64,000 bases of DNA from an uncultured beta proteobacterium (GCA_963832685.1 CAWHUZ010000001.1:291051-355050); one strand, 5' to 3'. Positions 4,704 through 44,359 are shown, numbered from the stretch's first letter. Numbers and translations are program-made. Notes: a model not told the origin generated them from the sequence alone.

Positions 4704-5975
4704 TTACGGGGCTGGCTGTGTCACCGTTGTCTGATCGAGATTGACCGCAGTCTGCGACAGCAGTCGGCTATTCATCGTCGCCTGGTTGCCGACATTGATG
4801 GCGCAGATCGAACCGCACAGGATAACGCCTTCGAAGTGCGCGGGCGCCGCTCCTACGTTCACAGACGCGCCGGCGACCTGCCAGAAGACGTTCTTGGGCA
4901 GCGCGCCGCCGGTCAGTTGCACGCTCGCAGTGGCGGCCGTCGTGAGCGTTCCCGTAATCTGGAAGATCCAGACATCAGTCGGACTACCCGAAAGAGTGAG
5001 AATCTGGCCAGCTCCCAGACTTACCGGTGTGCCCCAAGTGTAGACGCCAGGGGCCAGGGTTTGAGTGGTAAGCGTCCCGGCTCCGAGATTCAAGAACGGT
5101 GGACCAGCTGCTGCTGTTCGCCCAGCGGCGTCGTTGTACGCTAGGCCCATGTCGAGTGAGGCCGTGTTCACGCGAGTGGGGGTTGTCGCCGGAGGCCCGA
5201 TATAGTCCTTCGCAAATATCTGTCCGGTGACCTGAGGGGATGTCGAAAATGTATTCGACGCATCTACTGACAGTCCCCAGAGGGTGATGGCGGTCGAGGT
5301 GACGCCTGGGCCGACTCCCATGTCTCCCGTAATACACGGCGTAAGACATGCGGTCGCATTGGCGATCCCCGTGTTAGCGAAAACCGCATAGTCGCCGGCT
5401 GTTCCTAGATTCACCGGCGCCTGACCGGTTGTCGCAACGGCGGCCGTCTTAAAGCTCCACGCAACGGGATTTGCCATCGCCGTGCCGCCGGTGTTCTTGG
5501 CCGCGGTCGTTACGGTGGCGGTGTAGTCGGTATTCGGGGTGAGGGCAGCCGCTGTCGGTGTAAAGGTCGCCGCCGTGTGTGCGGTGTTCATGGCGACGGT
5601 GCCGGGCACGTTGGTGCCGCTCGCGGTTTCTTTGAGCGTGAACGTGAGCAGCGTTCCGGCCGGCGACGAGTTGATCGTTGCCGGATCCATCGCCTCAGTG
5701 AAGGTTGCGGTCGCGAGCGTGCCGGTCACAACGTTGCCGACGCCGTTCCAGCTATTGGTGCTGGTCGGCACGTTTGTGGCGCTGTTGCTCGGGCTCGCGG
5801 TACCCACAGTGGGATCGGTGGCCGAAGCGCCTGGGGTGCCGGCGGCGCCCGGGAGCACTGCAGCGCCCGTGTTCGAGCCTCCGCTTCCGCCTCCGCCGCA
5901 TCCAGCCATAAACGCGGTGAGCAGCAATGCCATGAACCACGTCAGTGGTTTGGAAAATCGTCCGAGGGTTTTCAT
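4704..5975 (-). CDS. Lipoprotein with Ig-like (Big_5-type) domain and C-terminal DUF3494 ice-binding-like domain
   Basis: Lipobox MAGC; ATFTEAMDPATI...ATFTPT..L.PNTDYTATVTTAAK; DUF3494 motifs TLAPGVYTW, VWIFQI, PKNVFWQV; RBS CAGGAG. Confidence 0.85.
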   Translation of the reverse strand: MKTLGRFSKPLTWFMALLLTAFMAGCGGGGSGGSNTGAAVLPGAAGTPGASATDPTVGTASPSNSATNVPTSTNSWNGVGNVVTGTLATATFTEAMDPATINSSPAGTLLTFTLKETASGTNVPGTVAMNTAHTAATFTPTAAALTPNTDYTATVTTAAKNTGGTAMANPVAWSFKTAAVATTGQAPVNLGTAGDYAVFANTGIANATACLTPCITGDMGVGPGVTSTAITLWGLSVDASNTFSTSPQVTGQIFAKDYIGPPATTPTRVNTASLDMGLAYNDAAGRTAAAGPPFLNLGAGTLTTQTLAPGVYTWGTPVSLGAGQILTLSGSPTDVWIFQITGTLTTAATASVQLTGGALPKNVFWQVAGASVNVGAAPAHFEGVILCGSICAINVGNQATMNSRLLSQTAVNLDQTTVTQPAP

Positions 5976-6069
5976 TTGTTGCTCCTGATCACGGGCCCCT
6001 GCGTGCCATACGAGGCGTTGGCGCCGAGTACCACTGATGAGCACTATCCGCTTTCGTTGCCGGGAGGTC

Positions 6070-6085
6070 AGTTCGTTTGCGTACA
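6070..6085. promoter_or_regulatory. Island palindromic box AGTTCG-TTTG-CGTACA
   Basis: Matches TGTRCG-N4-CGYACA; GATAGT hexamer (minus, 6048-6043) towards DUF3494 gene. Confidence 0.65.
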
Positions 6086-6092
6086 TAACCCG

Positions 6093-6125
6093 AAAAGAAG
6101 AAGGCCGTCTCGCGACGGCCTTCTT
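6093..6125 (-). terminator. Intrinsic terminator
   Basis: Perfect 12-bp stem AAGAAGGCCGTC/GACGGCCTTCTT with TCGC loop, then CTTTT on minus strand. Confidence 0.75.
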
Positions 6126-41686: not shown

Positions 41687-41709
41687 GGCGAGCGGTCGAA
41701 TTCCCGGGG

Positions 41710-42531
41710 CTAACTACTTGCCGAGAGCTCTACGCCGATGCCGCGGTATCCGATGAAGCGGCTGGAGCGGTTGAACATCGGCTCCCCGCTGACCTGGAAC
41801 CTCTGCTCGGAGCCGTCCGCGTTGACGCGGCTGAAGACGAAGTCCAGGAACGGCTGCCGCGCCGCGATTCGCTTCTGCAGGTCCTCCCGCTGGGCCGCGT
41901 TCCAGCCCGTCACCTGAGCACCGCCCGCGTCGCCCGCCAGAGTGTCGACCTGGACGCCGAGCATCTCCAGCACGGGACCGGATACCTTGGTGAAATTGCC
42001 GTTCTCGTCCTGTTCCCAGTACCAGTCGGCAGCCAGCTCGGTCAGGCTGCGGTAGCGCGCTTCGCTGGCGCGCAGCTCGGCGGTGCGTTCGGCGACCGCT
42101 TGTTCCAGCACCGCGTTGACATTTTCCAGCGCCTTGTACAGCAGGCGCACTTCCACCAAGTTGCGTACCCGCGCCTTCACTTCTACCAGATCGAACGGCT
42201 TGCTGATGAAATCCCGTGCGCCGGCCTGCAAGGCGCGCAGCTTGTGGCCGGGTTGGGCGGTAATCACGAGCACCGGAAGGTAGGCGTCCGCATCGTTCGT
42301 CTTGAGGATCTCGATCACCTGGAATCCGTCCATGCCGGGCATCTGCAGGTCGAGCAGGATCAGGTCGTAGCGGTTCTTGCGATGCAGGGCCCAGACCTCC
42401 TGCGGGTTCATGGTCGAGTCGACATGGGTGAAGCCGGCCTCGTGCAGCAGGCGTTCCAGCAGGCTGACGTTGGCCTCCTGGTCGTCCACGATCAGCAGGC
42501 CGGCGTCGAGGATATCGCGCTCGCCGATCAT
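41710..42531 (-). CDS. Response regulator with C-terminal PAS domain (no DNA-binding output)
   Basis: LIVDD, DLILLDLQMPGMDG, ITA, FISKPFD; SEARYRSLTELAADWYWEQD...GYRGIG. Confidence 0.87.
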   Translation of the reverse strand: MIGERDILDAGLLIVDDQEANVSLLERLLHEAGFTHVDSTMNPQEVWALHRKNRYDLILLDLQMPGMDGFQVIEILKTNDADAYLPVLVITAQPGHKLRALQAGARDFISKPFDLVEVKARVRNLVEVRLLYKALENVNAVLEQAVAERTAELRASEARYRSLTELAADWYWEQDENGNFTKVSGPVLEMLGVQVDTLAGDAGGAQVTGWNAAQREDLQKRIAARQPFLDFVFSRVNADGSEQRFQVSGEPMFNRSSRFIGYRGIGVELSASS

Positions 42532-44195
42532 GCGGCCACTGCCTTGGCGGCGCTGCGCTCGGATGCCGCTTGCGCGGACCGCAGCGCGACGTTCAGCGCG
42601 TCCATGAACCGGTCCACCTTGATGGGTTTGGTGAGATAGCTGAAGAAGCCGGCTTCGAGGCCCTTCTCGATGTCGCGCGGCACCGCATTGGCGCTGAGCG
42701 CGATGATGGGGATATGCGCCGTGGCCGGGTCGGCGCGCAGGATCTGCATCGCTTCGATCCCGCTCAGGCCGGGCAGGTTGATATCCATCAGGATCACTTC
42801 GGGCAGGAAGTGGCGCGCGATGTCTATGCCCTGCTGGCCGTCCGTGGCGCTTAGCATGCGCAGGTCGGCACGGCGCGCGACGAGTTGCTCGACCAGCTCC
42901 AGGTTGGCCGGATTGTCTTCGACGTAGAGCAGGGTGCGTGGCGGCGCGCCCTCCTGCGCCTGCGGCAGCCTCTGCGCCGCACGCGCGGCTTCCTGTGCCG
43001 CGAGCTCCGGCGCGCTCGTCAGGCTCAATTCGATCCAGAACACGCTCCCCACCCCGACCGTGCTTTCCACGCCGATGGCGCCCCCCATCAACCCGACCAG
43101 CCGCTTGGTCACGACCAGGCCGATGCCGGTGCCTTCCTCCACGCCGTTTTCCCTTCCGAGGCGGTTGAACGGCTGGAACAGCTGCGCCAGCTGCGCCGGC
43201 GCCAATCCCGGACCGGTGTCCCGCACGCCGATGCGAATCGAAGCCGCAGCGCAAGGGGTGCACTCCACGGCAACCGTGCCGCCCGGCGTGTTGTACTTGA
43301 TCGCGTTGAACAGAAGGTTGATCAGGACCTGCTTGACCCGCGTGCGGTCGGCTTTGACGAAGCAGGGGATCTCGAAAGTCGGAAACGTCATGCTGAGGCC
43401 GCGCCTTTGCGCCTGCGGCTCGATCATCGCCCGGCACTCGAGCATGACCTCGGCCAGCGATACGGGCTCGCGCGACAGCGTCACTTTGCCCGACTCGATC
43501 AGCGCCAGATCGAGGACCTCGTTGATCAGCTCGAGAAGGTACCAGCCCGCCTTGAGGATCTGGTCGAGGTCCCGCTGCTGGGCGGGCGTCGGCGGCGGAG
43601 AGCCGGATGCCATGAGCTGCGCGAAACCGAGGATCGCATTGAGCGGCGTGCGCAATTCATGGCTCATGCCGGACAGAAAATCCGACTTCGCGCGGTTGGC
43701 ATTCTCCGCCGCGGCCATGGCCTCGTTGCGCTCCGCTTCGACCTGCGTGCGCACGGAATTGTCGGTGCCGATCAGCAGAAAGCCGATGATGCCGCCGCCC
43801 ACGTCGCGCAGCGCGGTGACCGAAACCAGGGCGGGAAAGCGGCTGCCGTCCTTGCGGATATAGGTCAAGGCATAGCTGTCCTCGATCCCGTGCGATGCCT
43901 TGTACGCAAGCGCCTCGAAGCCCGGCGCAATCGGGACCCCCAGCTCGAGGCTCAATTCCCGCGCGCGCGCCGCCACTTCCTGCGGATCGTGAATGTCGCT
44001 CGGGCTGATTCTGTTCACGACTTCGTCGGCGGTGTAACCCAGCATGCGCTCGGCGCCGAGATTGAACAGCTGGATGATCCCTTTCTCGTCGGTGGCGATG
44101 ATCGAGAAAGTGGCGCTGGTGAGGATCGCGTTCCGCAAGGCGCTTGCCTTGCGGCCGTCTTCCGCAAGGGCATTCGCGTCTGCTTTCATGGCCAT
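42528..44195 (-). CDS. Cytoplasmic PAS-domain hybrid histidine kinase
   Basis: PAS FNLGAERMLGY..RKDGSRFP; H-box MSHELRTPLN; NAIKYN, DTGPG, GTGIGL; REC LYVEDN, MDINLP, KP. Confidence 0.93.
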   Translation of the reverse strand: MAMKADANALAEDGRKASALRNAILTSATFSIIATDEKGIIQLFNLGAERMLGYTADEVVNRISPSDIHDPQEVAARARELSLELGVPIAPGFEALAYKASHGIEDSYALTYIRKDGSRFPALVSVTALRDVGGGIIGFLLIGTDNSVRTQVEAERNEAMAAAENANRAKSDFLSGMSHELRTPLNAILGFAQLMASGSPPPTPAQQRDLDQILKAGWYLLELINEVLDLALIESGKVTLSREPVSLAEVMLECRAMIEPQAQRRGLSMTFPTFEIPCFVKADRTRVKQVLINLLFNAIKYNTPGGTVAVECTPCAAASIRIGVRDTGPGLAPAQLAQLFQPFNRLGRENGVEEGTGIGLVVTKRLVGLMGGAIGVESTVGVGSVFWIELSLTSAPELAAQEAARAAQRLPQAQEGAPPRTLLYVEDNPANLELVEQLVARRADLRMLSATDGQQGIDIARHFLPEVILMDINLPGLSGIEAMQILRADPATAHIPIIALSANAVPRDIEKGLEAGFFSYLTKPIKVDRFMDALNVALRSAQAASERSAAKAVAA

Positions 44196-44343
44196 GGCCG
44201 ATTTCCGCAATAACCCAATACAATCAGGCGGGGAACCCGCGCTTGCCGGGTCGGCAACGGAAGACTCGACTGAAAGCAGCCGGAAATCAGCCGCACCCCT
44301 TCCGAGGCGGCTACGCATAGTCGCCTGGGCATCGACGGCCGTC

Positions 44344-44359
44344 CGTACGCCAGCGCACA
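44344..44359. promoter_or_regulatory. Box CGTACG-CCAG-CGCACA upstream of HK-RR-crp operon
   Basis: GACTAT (minus 44322-44317); rightmost box seen. Confidence 0.75.

Follow-up and report, generated by a model that had tools for sequence, protein, structure and literature searches.

A 20-bp near-palindromic box, TA-TGTGCG-CCAG-CGCACA-GA (its centre also written CYAG), is found upstream of almost every operon in a 40-kb island, with genes for the envelope, stress and secretion, within the window, the 64,000-nucleotide stretch of DNA from an uncultured beta proteobacterium that was analysed here. Judged from sequence, these boxes are probably the operators for dimers of a Crp/Fnr subfamily with five members encoded in the island, acting mostly by class II activation. 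No printed description of the box or of the subfamily was found in the literature.

The initial annotation had reported 20 palindromes of the form TGTRCG-N4-CGYACA, yet the pattern as written has only three exact matches in the window (12637, 22271 and 35381), against an expectation of 0.01 and with none of 100 shuffles reaching three. With up to one mismatch, 13 of the 20 reported sites are matched; with up to two, 16 are matched together with nine unlisted places, a total of 25 that is barely over chance (shuffle mean 13.4; one of 100 shuffles reached 25), and the sites at 25634, 26355, 26372 and 37712 need more than two. A weight matrix derived solely from the sites of other genomes, but seeded with the reported sites and so not fully independent of them, gives 16.6-31.7 bits to 19 of the 20 and finds no additional site of at least 12 bits in the window. 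The candidate at 26372 reaches 6.8 bits with this matrix and was rejected. Nineteen of the palindromes therefore fit the 20-bp motif, and none was missed.

Along the 357-kb contig, all 19 matches of at least 12 bits fall within 4605-44400, from serS to the CoA-ligase gene, which means that the claim of box-free flanking core genes holds. The whole genome contains 41 sites of at least 16 bits, compared with 7 in a simulated genome. The proposal of a self-contained regulon fails at this scale, given that 22 of the 41 sites lie outside the island: ten at 60-97 kb of contig C3, and the remainder on C10, C13, C16, C12, C30 and other contigs. Intergenic DNA makes up 9.2% of the island. The boxes had all been described as intergenic, which is true of 13 of the 19 by longest-ORF calls; the other six overlap only 5' ORF extensions, each with an in-frame start further down, and become intergenic only after these starts were reassigned by hand, so that their count is not independent.

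The position of the boxes relative to promoters is precise. Among 236 sites of other genomes, 58% have nAnnnT at one exact offset, compared with a background of 4.3%, and this single offset places the centre of the 16-bp core at -41.5, the class II position. At that phasing the box spans -49 to -34, overlapping the -35 region, and G19-A20-C21 correspond to -33 to -31. The opposite side also has nAnnnT in 14% of the 236 sites, and both sides have it in 24. At most promoters, the promoter-proximal GAC flank would replace the GAC of the -35 hexamer and would be followed, after a 17-bp spacer, by a sigma70-type TAnnnT -10, with the bound Crp-type dimer recruiting RNA polymerase where the -35 is poor; at a minority of boxes, a single box would drive two divergent promoters. 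The sites of the window have GATAAT, CATAAT, TAACTT, TATGGT and similar hexamers at the class II offset, while the boxes at crp1, crp2, 23126 and 23178 deviate from this spacing. The 19 boxes (16-bp core, matrix score) and their presumed targets are:

Box 1, 6070-6085, minus, 24.2 bits: toward the ice-binding-like lipoprotein gene 4704-5975; GATAGT at the class II offset, Shine-Dalgarno and ATG 95 nt downstream.
Box 2, 7231-7246, minus, 23.0 bits: toward the ice-binding-like gene 6232-7161 (Pfam Ice_binding).
Box 3, 12637-12652, bidirectional, 31.7 bits (the highest score): divergent type II secretion operons gspG-N (minus) and gspC/D/E/F (plus); class II spacing to GATAAT toward the former and to TAGGAT toward the latter.
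Box 4, 17933-17948, no strand assigned, 22.8 bits: upstream of crp1 (18009); both flanks TA, no -10 at class II spacing.
Box 5, 21027-21042, minus, 26.7 bits: toward ice-binding-like 20003-20995, then ompA-like 18807-19964.
Box 6, 21057-21072, plus, 16.6 bits: weak; lies 30 bp from box 5, to which it may be a tandem upstream site; lacks a -10 with class II spacing.
Box 7, 22271-22286, bidirectional, 20.2 bits: MlaC-domain gene 21109-22215 (minus) and DUF3096 gene 22323-22505 (plus); class II spacing on each side, to GATAAT and to TATTGT.
Box 8, 23126-23141, minus, 24.9 bits: upstream of a secreted protein of no known family, 22521-23039; centre at about -57.5 relative to a TTGTGG..CATACT promoter.
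Box 9, 23178-23193, plus, 28.8 bits: upstream of the M48 peptidase gene 23320-24078; centre at about -58.5 relative to TTGTGA-17-CATACT.
Box 10, 25634-25649, minus, 18.6 bits: toward collagen-repeat/OmpA 24569-25552 (Pfam) and the unknown gene 24075-24491; TAACTT at the class II offset.
Box 11, 26329-26344, minus, 25.0 bits: toward the unknown gene 25920-26270 and csbD 25688-25876.
Box 12, 26355-26370, plus, 17.2 bits: weak; toward the RcnB-like gene 26425-26940, possibly also serving the crystallin/Gly-zipper gene 27016-28146; TATGGT at the class II offset.
Box 13, 35381-35396, minus, 28.9 bits: toward csbD 35087-35311, BON 34741-35052, BON 34263-34712 and DUF883 33901-34221.
Box 14, 37712-37727, minus, 19.9 bits: upstream of crp4.
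Box 15, 38702-38717, minus, 28.4 bits: toward Gly-zipper 38139-38675, DUF3309 37969-38127 and a small gene 37771-37965; CATAAT one base off the class II offset.
Box 16, 38833-38848, minus, 22.9 bits: candidate small RNA downstream, no ORF.
Box 17, 40620-40635, minus, 23.5 bits: toward ompA-like 39798-40493 and Gly-zipper 39206-39595 and 38917-39150.
Box 18, 40670-40685, plus, 24.0 bits: toward the DUF5670 gene 40755-40904.
Box 19, 44344-44359, no strand assigned, 25.0 bits: GAC flanks on both sides; most likely serves the minus-strand hybrid kinase/response regulator-PAS/crp5 operon, with GACTAT at the class II offset on the kinase side and no class II -10 toward the CoA-ligase gene.

In alignments of the window with the C3 copy and with a genome of the same genus (G013), the boxes are conserved blocks. 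Box 11 is kept in both, and the box 18 arrangement recurs in G013, where box 12 has 19 of 20 bases the same despite a 57-bp insertion that separates it from box 11. Box 13 is the best-conserved block of its intergenic region when three genomes are aligned, and the C3 counterpart of box 19 is oriented to the C3 kinase.

The five Crp/Fnr paralogs reported for the interval were all confirmed by Pfam, with HTH_Crp_2 in five of five and cNMP_binding in four of five:

crp1, 18009-18767, plus: helix GVRRE, tail CECY; Pfam HTH_Crp_2 and cNMP_binding.
crp2, 35430-36290, plus: helix GVRRV; 3' end uncertain, as public contigs differ by single bases at 36155, 36179 and 36183.
crp3, about 36184-36960, plus: helix GVRRV; frame open from about 36171 with the first start codon at 36271, so that the 5' end is disrupted in the assembly.
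crp4, 36895-37608, minus: helix GVRRV.
crp5, 40943-41686, minus: helix GVRRE; last gene of the kinase/response regulator-PAS/crp operon.

The hallmarks of the subfamily are the recognition helix MLGVRR[E/V]GVT, which keeps the R-E pair of CRP with an extra Arg before it, and a conserved C-terminal CxCY. The position that we take to be Arg185 of CRP is E, A or K. Identity to solved Crp/Fnr members is at most 22%, and the AF2 model of the crp1 product (pLDDT 87.4) gives a Foldseek TM of about 0.7 to GlxR, Mtb CRP and FNR. In the sensor domain, the cAMP-contacting Glu is replaced by I or L and the Arg-Thr/Ser by T-P, and for this reason cAMP is probably not the input; the signal may instead come through the amount of regulator, the conserved cysteines or the neighbouring kinase system. 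The one idea tested for linking paralog identity to box specificity failed.

The regulon would comprise small envelope and stress proteins (CsbD, BON, DUF883, Gly-zipper, OmpA-like, DUF3309, DUF3096 and DUF5670), type II secretion together with three DUF3494 proteins, the paired PAS kinase and response regulator, and the Crp proteins. The crp genes have their own boxes, which suggests that they are autoregulated, and certain of these boxes may be placed for repression and not for activation. Further features concerned are:

7293-12546, minus: type II secretion genes gspN, M, L, K, J, I, H and G (Pfam).
12718-17887, plus: type II secretion genes gspC(?)/D/E/F (Pfam), of which gspD and gspF are interrupted by frame breaks.
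38721-38829, minus: candidate small RNA with a CUCCUCCUCCC-loop hairpin, a terminator hairpin and a U-run.
41710-42531, minus: PAS-domain response regulator lacking a DNA-binding domain (Pfam).
42528-44210, minus: PAS hybrid histidine kinase (Pfam), whose homologues lie downstream of boxes ten times in other genomes.

Elsewhere, and also in other genera, the boxes precede genes of the same families. Homologues of island proteins follow 100 of the 236 sites in other genomes (Crp 37, CsbD 12, OmpA 10, kinase 10, BON 9, and others), and Pfam finds HTH_Crp in 23, BON in 8, PAS in 7, CsbD in 6, OmpA in 4, DUF883 in 3 and KaiC in 2 of 143 downstream ORFs. On other contigs of the same genome, boxes stand ahead of KaiC-like, PRC-barrel, RcnB-like and further genes. 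The earlier idea that a Crp subfamily runs an envelope and stress programme, including type II secretion and DUF3494 proteins, is well supported computationally in its core, with the stress role suggested by family names only; the efflux pump that had been counted in has no box of its own and would need read-through from the csbD box at 35381.

The candidate small RNA (minimum free energy -39.3 kcal/mol, z -3.5) scores 32.6 bits against Rfam ar14, under the gathering threshold of 58.8 (E 1.5e-4 for 351 bases); it is kept in the C3 copy and no recurrence was found beyond it. RNA-library contigs, compared at no less than 95% identity, cover csbD-BON-DUF883, Gly-zipper/OmpA, crp and other box-preceded units, including 33946-35333 downstream of box 13 (a single 1388-nt contig) and 39086-39925 and 40024-40557 downstream of box 17, a comparison that is blind to transcript start, strand and level and in which the libraries may hold DNA.

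The link between box and regulator extends well beyond this genome, which bears on whether a different, unlinked transcription factor could bind the box, with the Crp association due to shared neighbourhood only. Around orthologous crp genes, where the initial annotation had proposed to look, at least one box was found at 72 of 80 loci (279 boxes in 1.24 Mb), and a box lies within 350 bp upstream of 84 of 131 subfamily genes, although these counts, like those of the 120 genomes, include related genomes and are not independent samples. Across 120 genomes of the order, the mean number of boxes is 6.33 with the subfamily (n=48) and 0.58 without it (n=72), compared with 1.27 and 1.12 for a reversed pattern, and the box count follows subfamily copy number (Spearman 0.71). 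The association is not complete, as an unlinked factor would allow: eight of the 80 loci have no box of at least 16 bits (those of Cupriavidus and Caballeronia, one from Paraburkholderia and four on MAG fragments; in the loci from Paraburkholderia just a GTACG-N4-CGTAC core is retained), 12 of the 48 subfamily genomes have zero or one strict match, and three of the 72 without the subfamily have at least three. Binding of the box by the Crp proteins is itself something that we infer. Nonetheless, the box matches Crp-family sites in symmetry and, as the initial annotation had noted for CRP, in length and outer TGT/ACA, the recognition helix retains the R-E pair, and Pfam finds no DNA-binding domain in the island besides the Crp paralogs, all of which make an unlinked factor improbable.

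It is also unlikely, though slightly less so, that the Crp paralogs bind the box mainly as repressors, with the operator blocking RNA polymerase until a signal frees the protein. The overlap with the -35 region would suit this, as would box 13, whose other end lies 33 nt before the crp2 ATG and would sit inside the core promoter, and the fact that near crp genes the nearest box often faces away (52 of 84). Repression, however, does not need such precise spacing, and the exact phasing, fixed spacer and partial -35 (GAC) are the signature of activator-dependent class II promoters; single boxes serving two divergent promoters with identical phasing and, more weakly, the presence of box-preceded units in RNA libraries point the same way. 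Structural repeats of RNA or DNA, whether REP-like elements, hairpins or terminators, are a very remote explanation: every site could fold into a stem of 6 bp closed by a 4-nt loop and the placement is intergenic, but the variable half-site positions change independently, without compensation (symmetric fraction 0.325, with 0.388 expected), the sites stand upstream of genes at a fixed distance to the -10 and not behind stop codons, their asymmetric flanks point toward the downstream gene, and a search of the boxes against Rfam matched no family. Activation from a class II operator is the reading that we prefer.

The initial annotation had set a Crp subfamily in the place of an alternative sigma factor, and this is valid at most locally. 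A search for RpoS found none above cut-off in this assembly, which is 86.6% complete, or in the two other genomes of the same family, but order-wide 29 of the 48 genomes that have the subfamily have RpoS as well (odds ratio 1.37, p 0.46).

At class II promoters of E. coli, CRP binds TGTGA-N6-TCACA centred at -41.5. The box resembles these sites in its 16-bp two-fold symmetric core, outer TGT/ACA and position over a weak -35, and the proteins share the R-E pair and, in the model, the two-domain fold. The inner core is CG..CG in place of the A-N..N-T of CRP, the subfamily has the additional Arg and replaced cAMP-contacting residues, and its targets are envelope and stress genes, whereas those of CRP are catabolic operons. 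NtcA (GTA-N8-TAC) and Sinorhizobium Clr (TGTT-N8-AACA), both among the structural neighbours, share an outer (T)GT-N8/10-AC(A) frame, but the box is set apart by its conserved inner CG..CG and its TA/GA flanks; NtcA is the only curated NCBIfam model matching the subfamily, at 31.7 bits against a cut-off of 244.95.

The lxa (low-oxygen-activated) locus of Burkholderia cenocepacia, in the available extract of its description, has one inverted-repeat motif at 17 intergenic points among 50 genes, and encodes its own CRP-family regulators beside a response regulator and a sensor kinase, with co-regulated loci elsewhere, much as in the island (PMC3721108). In that extract, the lxa motif consists of inverted 4-bp arms with a 6-bp gap and has TGA-N6-TCA in common with Anr/Fnr sites; the regulators are described as Anr-related, and the genes as universal stress proteins and anaerobic metabolism induced by low oxygen, all of which differ from the island (PMC3721108). 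Thermus SdrP, Deinococcus DdrI and Porphyromonas CrpPg are, in the extracts available, cAMP-independent and control stress or stationary-phase genes, a precedent that fits the degenerate nucleotide pocket of the subfamily (PMC11253593, PMC4868304, PMC12040651). They belong to other phyla and other sequence families, a separation judged by sequence; no close sequence relation to them was found, the best PDB sequence matches being 38-45 bits. The subfamily appears to be a widespread, uncharacterised branch of the Crp/Fnr regulators, and the box is most likely its activator site.

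The box described in the initial annotation as 20 copies of TGTRCG-N4-CGYACA is better captured by a weight matrix than by that string, for which only three exact matches exist in the window (12637, 22271 and 35381, each number being the start of a 16-bp core). Three matches compare with 0.01 expected, and 0 of 100 shuffles reached three. Of the 20 listed sites, 13 lie within one mismatch of the string and 16 within two, while 25634, 26355, 26372 and 37712 need more than two. Given that the two-mismatch total in the window (25) barely exceeds chance (shuffled mean 13.4, with 1 of 100 shuffles reaching 25), the consensus string alone is a poor detector. 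With a matrix built from sites in other genomes, which descends from a scan seeded with the initially annotated sites and is thus not fully independent of them, 19 of the 20 sites are recovered, at 16.6 to 31.7 bits, and 26372 is rejected (6.8 bits). No additional site was found in the window with the same matrix at 12 bits or above. After orienting the sites to the downstream gene, the motif reads T-A-TGTGCG-C[C/T]AG-CGCACA-G-A, in which core positions G2, C5/G6, C11/G12 and C15 are invariant and the flanks are asymmetric, with TA distal and GA(C) proximal to the gene.

All 19 matches on the whole 357-kb contig fall within 4605-44400, as expected from the earlier observation that none precedes the flanking core genes. 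The boxes had also been described as intergenic throughout. This holds for 13 of the 19 under longest-ORF calls, while the other six overlap 5' ORF extensions only; these six ORFs, the starts of which were re-set by hand in this analysis, have a start further down in frame, preceded by a Shine-Dalgarno sequence and followed by a signal-peptide-like N-terminus. The intergenic share of the island is 9.2%. Gene families were assigned by Pfam to ORFs taken from crude home-made gene calls and automatic downstream-ORF picks and, for this reason, the genome-wide split between coding and intergenic matches is not taken as evidence.

The arrangement of the box relative to promoter elements was obtained from an alignment of 237 sites of at least 18 bits from 80 loci of other genomes, with the 20-mer numbered 1-20. 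In these sites, core positions 5-6 and 11-12 are C-G and C-G in 91-97% (consensus TGTGCG-N4-CGCACA). The variable half-site positions show no covariation (symmetric fraction 0.325 versus 0.388 expected if independent), as would be expected of a protein operator rather than of a hairpin maintained through base pairing; an Rfam scan of the window at gathering thresholds matched no family. Outside the box, the sole information-rich columns are T40, A41 and T45, and nAnnnT occurs at that one exact offset in 58% of 236 sites, versus approximately 4.3% at neighbouring offsets and in the background. When this -10 hexamer, from which transcript starts were inferred, is set at -12 to -7, the 16-bp core is centred at -41.5, and the proximal flank G19-A20-C21 occupies -33 to -31, where it corresponds to GAC in a TTGACA -35 hexamer with a spacer of 17 bp behind it. 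A box centred near -41.5 that overlaps the -35 element is the class II geometry of Crp/Fnr-type activators. The box promoters have the whole layout of a class II sigma70 promoter, namely a site near -41.5, its overlap with a weak -35 and fixed -10 spacing, and the promoters that the box precedes are predicted to be of the class II activator-dependent type.

The sites of the window itself carry GATAAT, CATAAT, TAACTT, TATGGT, GATAGT and similar hexamers at the class II offset. Each of boxes 12637 and 22271 is flanked on either side by a proper -10 and therefore probably drives two divergent operons; in the other genomes, nAnnnT is found at the exact offset on the opposite side in 14% of sites, and on both sides in 24 of 236. 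Boxes 23126 and 23178 lie approximately 16-17 bp further upstream of complete TTGTG(A/G)-17-CATACT promoters. No class II -10 was found at the box of crp1, nor at that of crp2 in the plus direction. The crp2 box ends 33 nt ahead of the ATG and would overlap the core promoter, which suggests that crp2 may be under negative autoregulation.

The genes of the island and its border, as assigned by Pfam, are the following:

3231-4604, serS
from 4704, from 6232 and from 20003, three DUF3494/Ice_binding genes
minus strand, gspG-N, and plus strand, gspC?/D/E/F, the two divergent operons of a T2SS
island, OmpA-like proteins, a MlaC-domain protein, DUF3096 and an M48 peptidase
island, a collagen-repeat/OmpA protein and two CsbD genes
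island, an RcnB-like protein and a beta/gamma-crystallin/Gly-zipper protein
island, a MacB/HlyD/OEP efflux block and an AI-2E transporter
island, DUF883, two BON, DUF3309, three Gly-zipper and DUF5670 genes
island, a PAS hybrid kinase and a response regulator with PAS and without a DNA-binding domain
18009-18767 (+), 35430-36290 (+), 36184-36960 (+), 36895-37608 (-) and 40943-41686 (-), the five Crp/Fnr genes crp1 to crp5

By inspection, all definable starts have a box within approximately 130 bp, in agreement with the initial description of a box before nearly every transcription unit, but two exceptions without a near box were noted: the crystallin-like gene, 76 nt behind the RcnB-like gene, and the efflux/AI-2E block, which follows the csbD2 operon and is oriented like it. 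Two envelope proteins are unusual: the product of 24569-25552 joins collagen triple-helix repeats to an OmpA domain, and that of 27016-28146 combines two beta/gamma-crystallin domains with a Gly-zipper. No DNA-binding domain other than those of the Crp paralogs was found by Pfam in the island.

The five paralogs had been recognised as Crp/Fnr proteins, and PF13545 (HTH_Crp_2) indeed scores above its cut-off in 5 of 5 (48.9-60.1 bits). PF00027 (cNMP_binding) was found in four of them at 26.6-33.1 bits, its cut-off of 27.5 being reached only by crp1 and crp4, while crp2 has the HTH match only. The island paralogs are 44-67% identical to crp1 and have in common the helix MLGVRR[E/V]GVT and, at the C-terminus, CxCY. 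For crp1, a confident AlphaFold2 model (46 sequences, pLDDT 87.4) has a beta-barrel, a long helix at 131-156 and a winged HTH. The Foldseek neighbours of this model, GlxR, Mtb CRP, FNR, Clp, NtcA and Clr, have a TM of approximately 0.6-0.7 and identities of at most 22%, with 0.65-0.71 over 217-225 columns for GlxR, Mtb CRP and FNR. The HTH, the cNMP-binding-like barrel and the dimerisation helix place the five paralogs, as far as sequence and model can tell, in the Crp/Fnr superfamily. Sequence searches of the PDB with the subfamily gave at best 38-45 bits, and NCBIfam holds no model for it, the best match being NtcA (TIGR03697) at 31.7 bits versus a cut-off of 244.95.

Assignment of these proteins to CRP proper or to FNR/Anr was considered against both protein and site. 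In a profile alignment of the nucleotide pocket to cAMP-bound GlxR, G-E aligns with G-[I/L] and R-T with T-P; given that the cAMP-pocket residues are replaced, canonical cAMP binding by the subfamily appears unlikely. Neither the phosphate-binding cassette of CRP (Gly-Glu ... Arg-Ser/Thr) nor its TGTGA-N6-TCACA site was found. FNR/Anr proteins have an N-terminal cysteine cluster for an Fe-S centre and bind TTGAT-N4-ATCAA. No N-terminal cysteine is conserved across the subfamily sequences, and both the cysteine pattern and the box differ from those of FNR/Anr. In the recognition helix, the R-E pair of CRP/GlxR is kept with an extra Arg ahead of it, and the basic residue expected four positions further on is absent; we infer from this alignment that the extra Arg may read the inner CG of the box. 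Across 46 sequences, no variation occurs at C153 and C232 and almost none at C164 and C230, and the conserved cysteines could possibly act as a redox or metal switch.

Paralog-specific half-sites, in which the residue after VRR (Glu or Val), equivalent in position to CRP Glu181, would set the variable fourth base, were tried and rejected, with no link in the expected sense. At the fourth base, boxes before E-type genes have G 55, A 37, T 22 and C 6, and those before V-type genes G 24, T 10 and A 4; no excess of symmetric sites was found either. A run of 11 G (approximately 17995-18008) lies directly before the GTG start of crp1 and could be slippage-prone or a source of sequencing errors.

A pattern search based on the paralog alignment returned at least 596 relatives in species-representative genomes. 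The best 80 of these are 67-83% identical to crp1 and belong mostly to Burkholderiales-type Betaproteobacteria (MAGs, Variovorax, Polaromonas, Paraburkholderia, Cupriavidus, Collimonas, Methylobacillus, Propionivibrio and others), some being Gammaproteobacteria (Dyella, Methylomonas, Halomonas and Photobacterium). Repeating the search around these orthologous crp genes, as had been proposed, recovered the box at 72 of the 80 loci of other genomes; it is missing at 8. In the 1.24 Mb around them there are 279 boxes of at least 16 bits, genomes of 41-50% G+C included, and the genome of the window has a few boxes per megabase outside its box clusters. In Cupriavidus nothing convincing was found down to 9 bits, and in Paraburkholderia the box is reduced to a GTACG-N4-CGTAC core. 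With 131 subfamily genes at the 80 loci, it is usual to find more than one paralog. A box lies within 350 bp upstream of 84 of these 131 genes (median of 91 bp from box centre to start), and subfamily crp genes are predicted to be autoregulated. The CxCY tail, which is outside the search pattern, is present in 124 of the 131.

A phylogenetic profile was made across 120 other genomes of the same order, including one unpublished genome (G026) used in the profile tallies only, with the strict pattern TNNGTDCGNNNNCGHACNGA for the box and a match to crp1 at E of at most 1e-30 for the subfamily. The 48 genomes with the subfamily contain 304 strict matches (mean 6.33), with at least three in 31 genomes, versus 42 (mean 0.58) in the 72 without it, with at least three in 3 genomes. 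The pattern read backwards, as a control, gave 1.27 with the subfamily and 1.12 without. Box count and number of subfamily matches correlate across the 120 genomes (Spearman 0.71), the p-values of the profile overstating the case because related genomes are not independent. In 12 of the 48 subfamily genomes only 0-1 strict matches were found. The box has the two-fold symmetric form expected of Crp/Fnr dimer sites, which span about 14-16 bp, and co-occurs with the protein, and the two are predicted to be regulator and site.

The genes behind the boxes are also shared between genomes. A homologue of an island protein lies at most 900 nt downstream, in the orientation of the box, for 100 of 236 sites in other genomes: Crp (37), CsbD (12), OmpA (10), kinase (10), BON (9), DUF3309 (5), Gly-zipper (4), DUF3096, DUF883 and Ice_binding (3 each) and others. 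Pfam was run on the best 150 of 186 sites of at least 20 bits with a pickable downstream ORF, of which 143 ORFs were kept after dropping five of more than 1,000 aa and two duplicates. The families found were HTH_Crp_2 (23), BON (8), PAS (7), HATPase_c (6), CsbD (6), OmpA (4), Response_reg (4), GGDEF, FA_desaturase, DUF4398 and DUF883 (3 each), and KaiC and DUF3309 (2 each). In G013, a genome of the same genus, boxes stand at orthologous places before the unknown-gene/rcnB-like pair (a weak second box included) and DUF5670, and at a csbD-BON-BON-DUF883-AI-2E operon facing crp genes. The conserved blocks in three-way alignments are the boxes, and a 57-bp insertion in G013 between the two boxes of one region leaves boxes and promoter spacing intact.

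The regulon is not confined to the island, as had been supposed, given that boxes also precede genes on four other contigs of the assembly (C10, C3, C16 and C13). On C10 (L083, 6355-8644), a KaiC-like ATPase gene and the gene of a Crp paralog of a sixth type run divergently, with two strong boxes between them (27.4 and 25.7 bits). KaiC is also found behind boxes in two other genomes. Boxes precede genes for a PRC-barrel protein and G6PD on C3, an RcnB-like gene on C16, and FecR/DUF6600, SpoIIAA-like and HlyIII-like genes on C13. In several genomes of the order (G009, G082, G098, G117 and G003 as examples), the listed box matches fall within stretches of 20-40 kb that also hold crp genes, which makes the island layout a recurring habit and not a peculiarity of the window.

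The initial annotation had proposed a Crp subfamily rather than an alternative sigma factor as the regulator. For RpoS (TIGR02394), no match above the cut-off was found in the genome of the window, the best being 277 versus 378.7 bits in a 780-aa frame of an assembly that is 86.6% complete, nor in two other genomes of family f1 (G013 and G072, one of them 100% complete). The box promoters have sigma70-type elements and no enrichment of C at -13 (C 0.30, G 0.35); neither the alternative sigma factor nor the promoter signature of an RpoS/SigB-type regulon was found here. RpoS is, however, present in 66 of 121 genomes of the order and in 29 of the 48 with the subfamily, and the proposal is therefore plausible for this lineage only. 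The subfamily as an order-wide replacement of RpoS was rejected (odds ratio 1.37, p 0.46), the genome counts being 29 with both, 19 with the subfamily only, 38 with RpoS only and 34 with neither. The nearest parallel in the literature is the lxa locus of B. cenocepacia, where an island carries a repeated motif at 17 intergenic points and encodes CRP-family regulators of its own together with a kinase/regulator pair (PMC3721108). The lxa motif is given there as Anr/Fnr-like, TGA-N6-TCA, and the box differs from it in having no TGA..TCA frame (PMC3721108). SdrP, DdrI and CrpPg are reported to be CRP-family proteins that are cAMP-independent and linked to stress (PMC11253593, PMC4868304, PMC12040651). 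No description of the box or of the subfamily was found in the literature searched, which left out most subscription journals. The system is filed as a predicted class II regulon of the Crp/Fnr family whose specificity and sensor pocket are new and whose target set is distinctive.

Of the words sampled from 33800-41000, 23-41% occur in soil metagenome and metatranscriptome runs; the figures for runs X2 and X3 are the same, and these two probably represent a single data set. RNA-library contigs of at least 95% identity, which cannot prove start, strand or level, cover 24401-26098, 27769-28313, 36119-36966, 37820-38091, 39086-39925, 40024-40557 and 40832-41164 when mapped on 24401-44400. A single RNA contig of 1388 nt (33946-35333) spans DUF883, both BON genes and csbD, and ends 22 nt upstream of the csbD start, approximately 14 nt short of the predicted transcript start. 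The efflux block (approximately 28.4-33.0 kb) has no RNA-contig cover and the kinase genes have little, which does not imply silence; the DNA run covers both. The RNA-library contigs suggest that the box-linked programme is active in soil. A candidate small RNA (38721-38829, minus strand) lies directly behind box 38833, with a hairpin whose CUCCUCCUCCC loop is anti-Shine-Dalgarno-like, followed by a terminator. It matches Rfam ar14 at 32.6 bits, below the threshold of 58.8, is kept in the C3 copy of the island and was not found behind boxes in other genomes. A box-driven CCUCCUCC hairpin RNA as a conserved regulon member was rejected, the motif being found behind 1 of 240 other-genome sites, and that one unconvincing, so the RNA is retained as a local feature only.

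Part of the assembly is present in two versions. Contigs C15, C4, C11, C2 and parts of C3 match, over the greater part or the whole of their length and at 82-97% identity, parts of C14, C5, C12, C30 and C1. At 61-81 kb, C3 carries a diverged version of window 25.9-44.2 kb (79-95% identity) that includes four further crp genes; window 25946-44227 and 53188-64000 match C3 (L081, L082), and C1 ends exactly at the end of its C3 match. Contamination by a CheckM-type estimate is only 1.35%. The picture resembles a second, related strain that was co-assembled (a graph bubble) more than a true duplication, and if the C3 copy does come from a second strain, the 12 subfamily copies are an overcount. Frames are broken in gspD (Secretin domain in a separate frame, 14660-15235) and gspF (three frames) within window 12718-17887, and in the outer-membrane efflux protein (OEP, four frames) and the ABC/MacB genes within 28163-31361; these may be either pseudogenes or single-base indel assembly errors. 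The crp2/crp3 junction is also affected. Public DNA and RNA contigs are one base shorter at each of 36155, 36179 and 36183, where crp2 gains a long tail and crp3 loses its start, and both genes are probably intact in related strains. Window 4531-4635 (the last 73 bases of serS and 31 downstream) is 77% identical over 105 bases to C3 61196-61299, which adjoins the kinase end of the island copy, and could be either a recombination scar or a shared terminator.

A wider reading, which we consider rather improbable, is that the subfamily is the master switch of a dormancy- or desiccation-like envelope programme in Betaproteobacteria of soil and freshwater and in some Gammaproteobacteria. The programme would run parallel to RpoS, and in its place in RpoS-less lineages such as this one. 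Its input would not involve cAMP sensing; a redox or metal switch formed by C153 (hinge) and CxCY, the linked proteins (PAS kinase, RR-PAS and KaiC-like), or both would supply it. The paralogs (2-7 per genome, 5 in the island) would homo- or heterodimerise and read the fourth half-site base as a combinatorial code, and a dedicated T2SS would export the DUF3494 'ice-binding-like' proteins.

Most of the genes preceded by the box encode small proteins of vague function (CsbD, BON, DUF883, DUF3309, DUF3096, DUF5670, Gly-zipper and DUF3494). In model bacteria, such proteins are usually treated as targets of RpoS or SigB. They are here given a predicted and testable regulator-operator pair, which is present in approximately 40% of the sampled genomes of a large order (48 of 120), with Variovorax, Methylobacillus, Collimonas, Polaromonas, Methylomonas and Dyella among its cultured carriers. 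The box predicts regulon membership genome by genome, shows that in several genomes such genes cluster in islands of 20-40 kb around the regulator genes, and ties a T2SS to DUF3494 proteins by predicted co-regulation. The recognition code of the Crp/Fnr family would also gain a defined variant, in which an extra Arg in the helix goes with an inner CG in the site.
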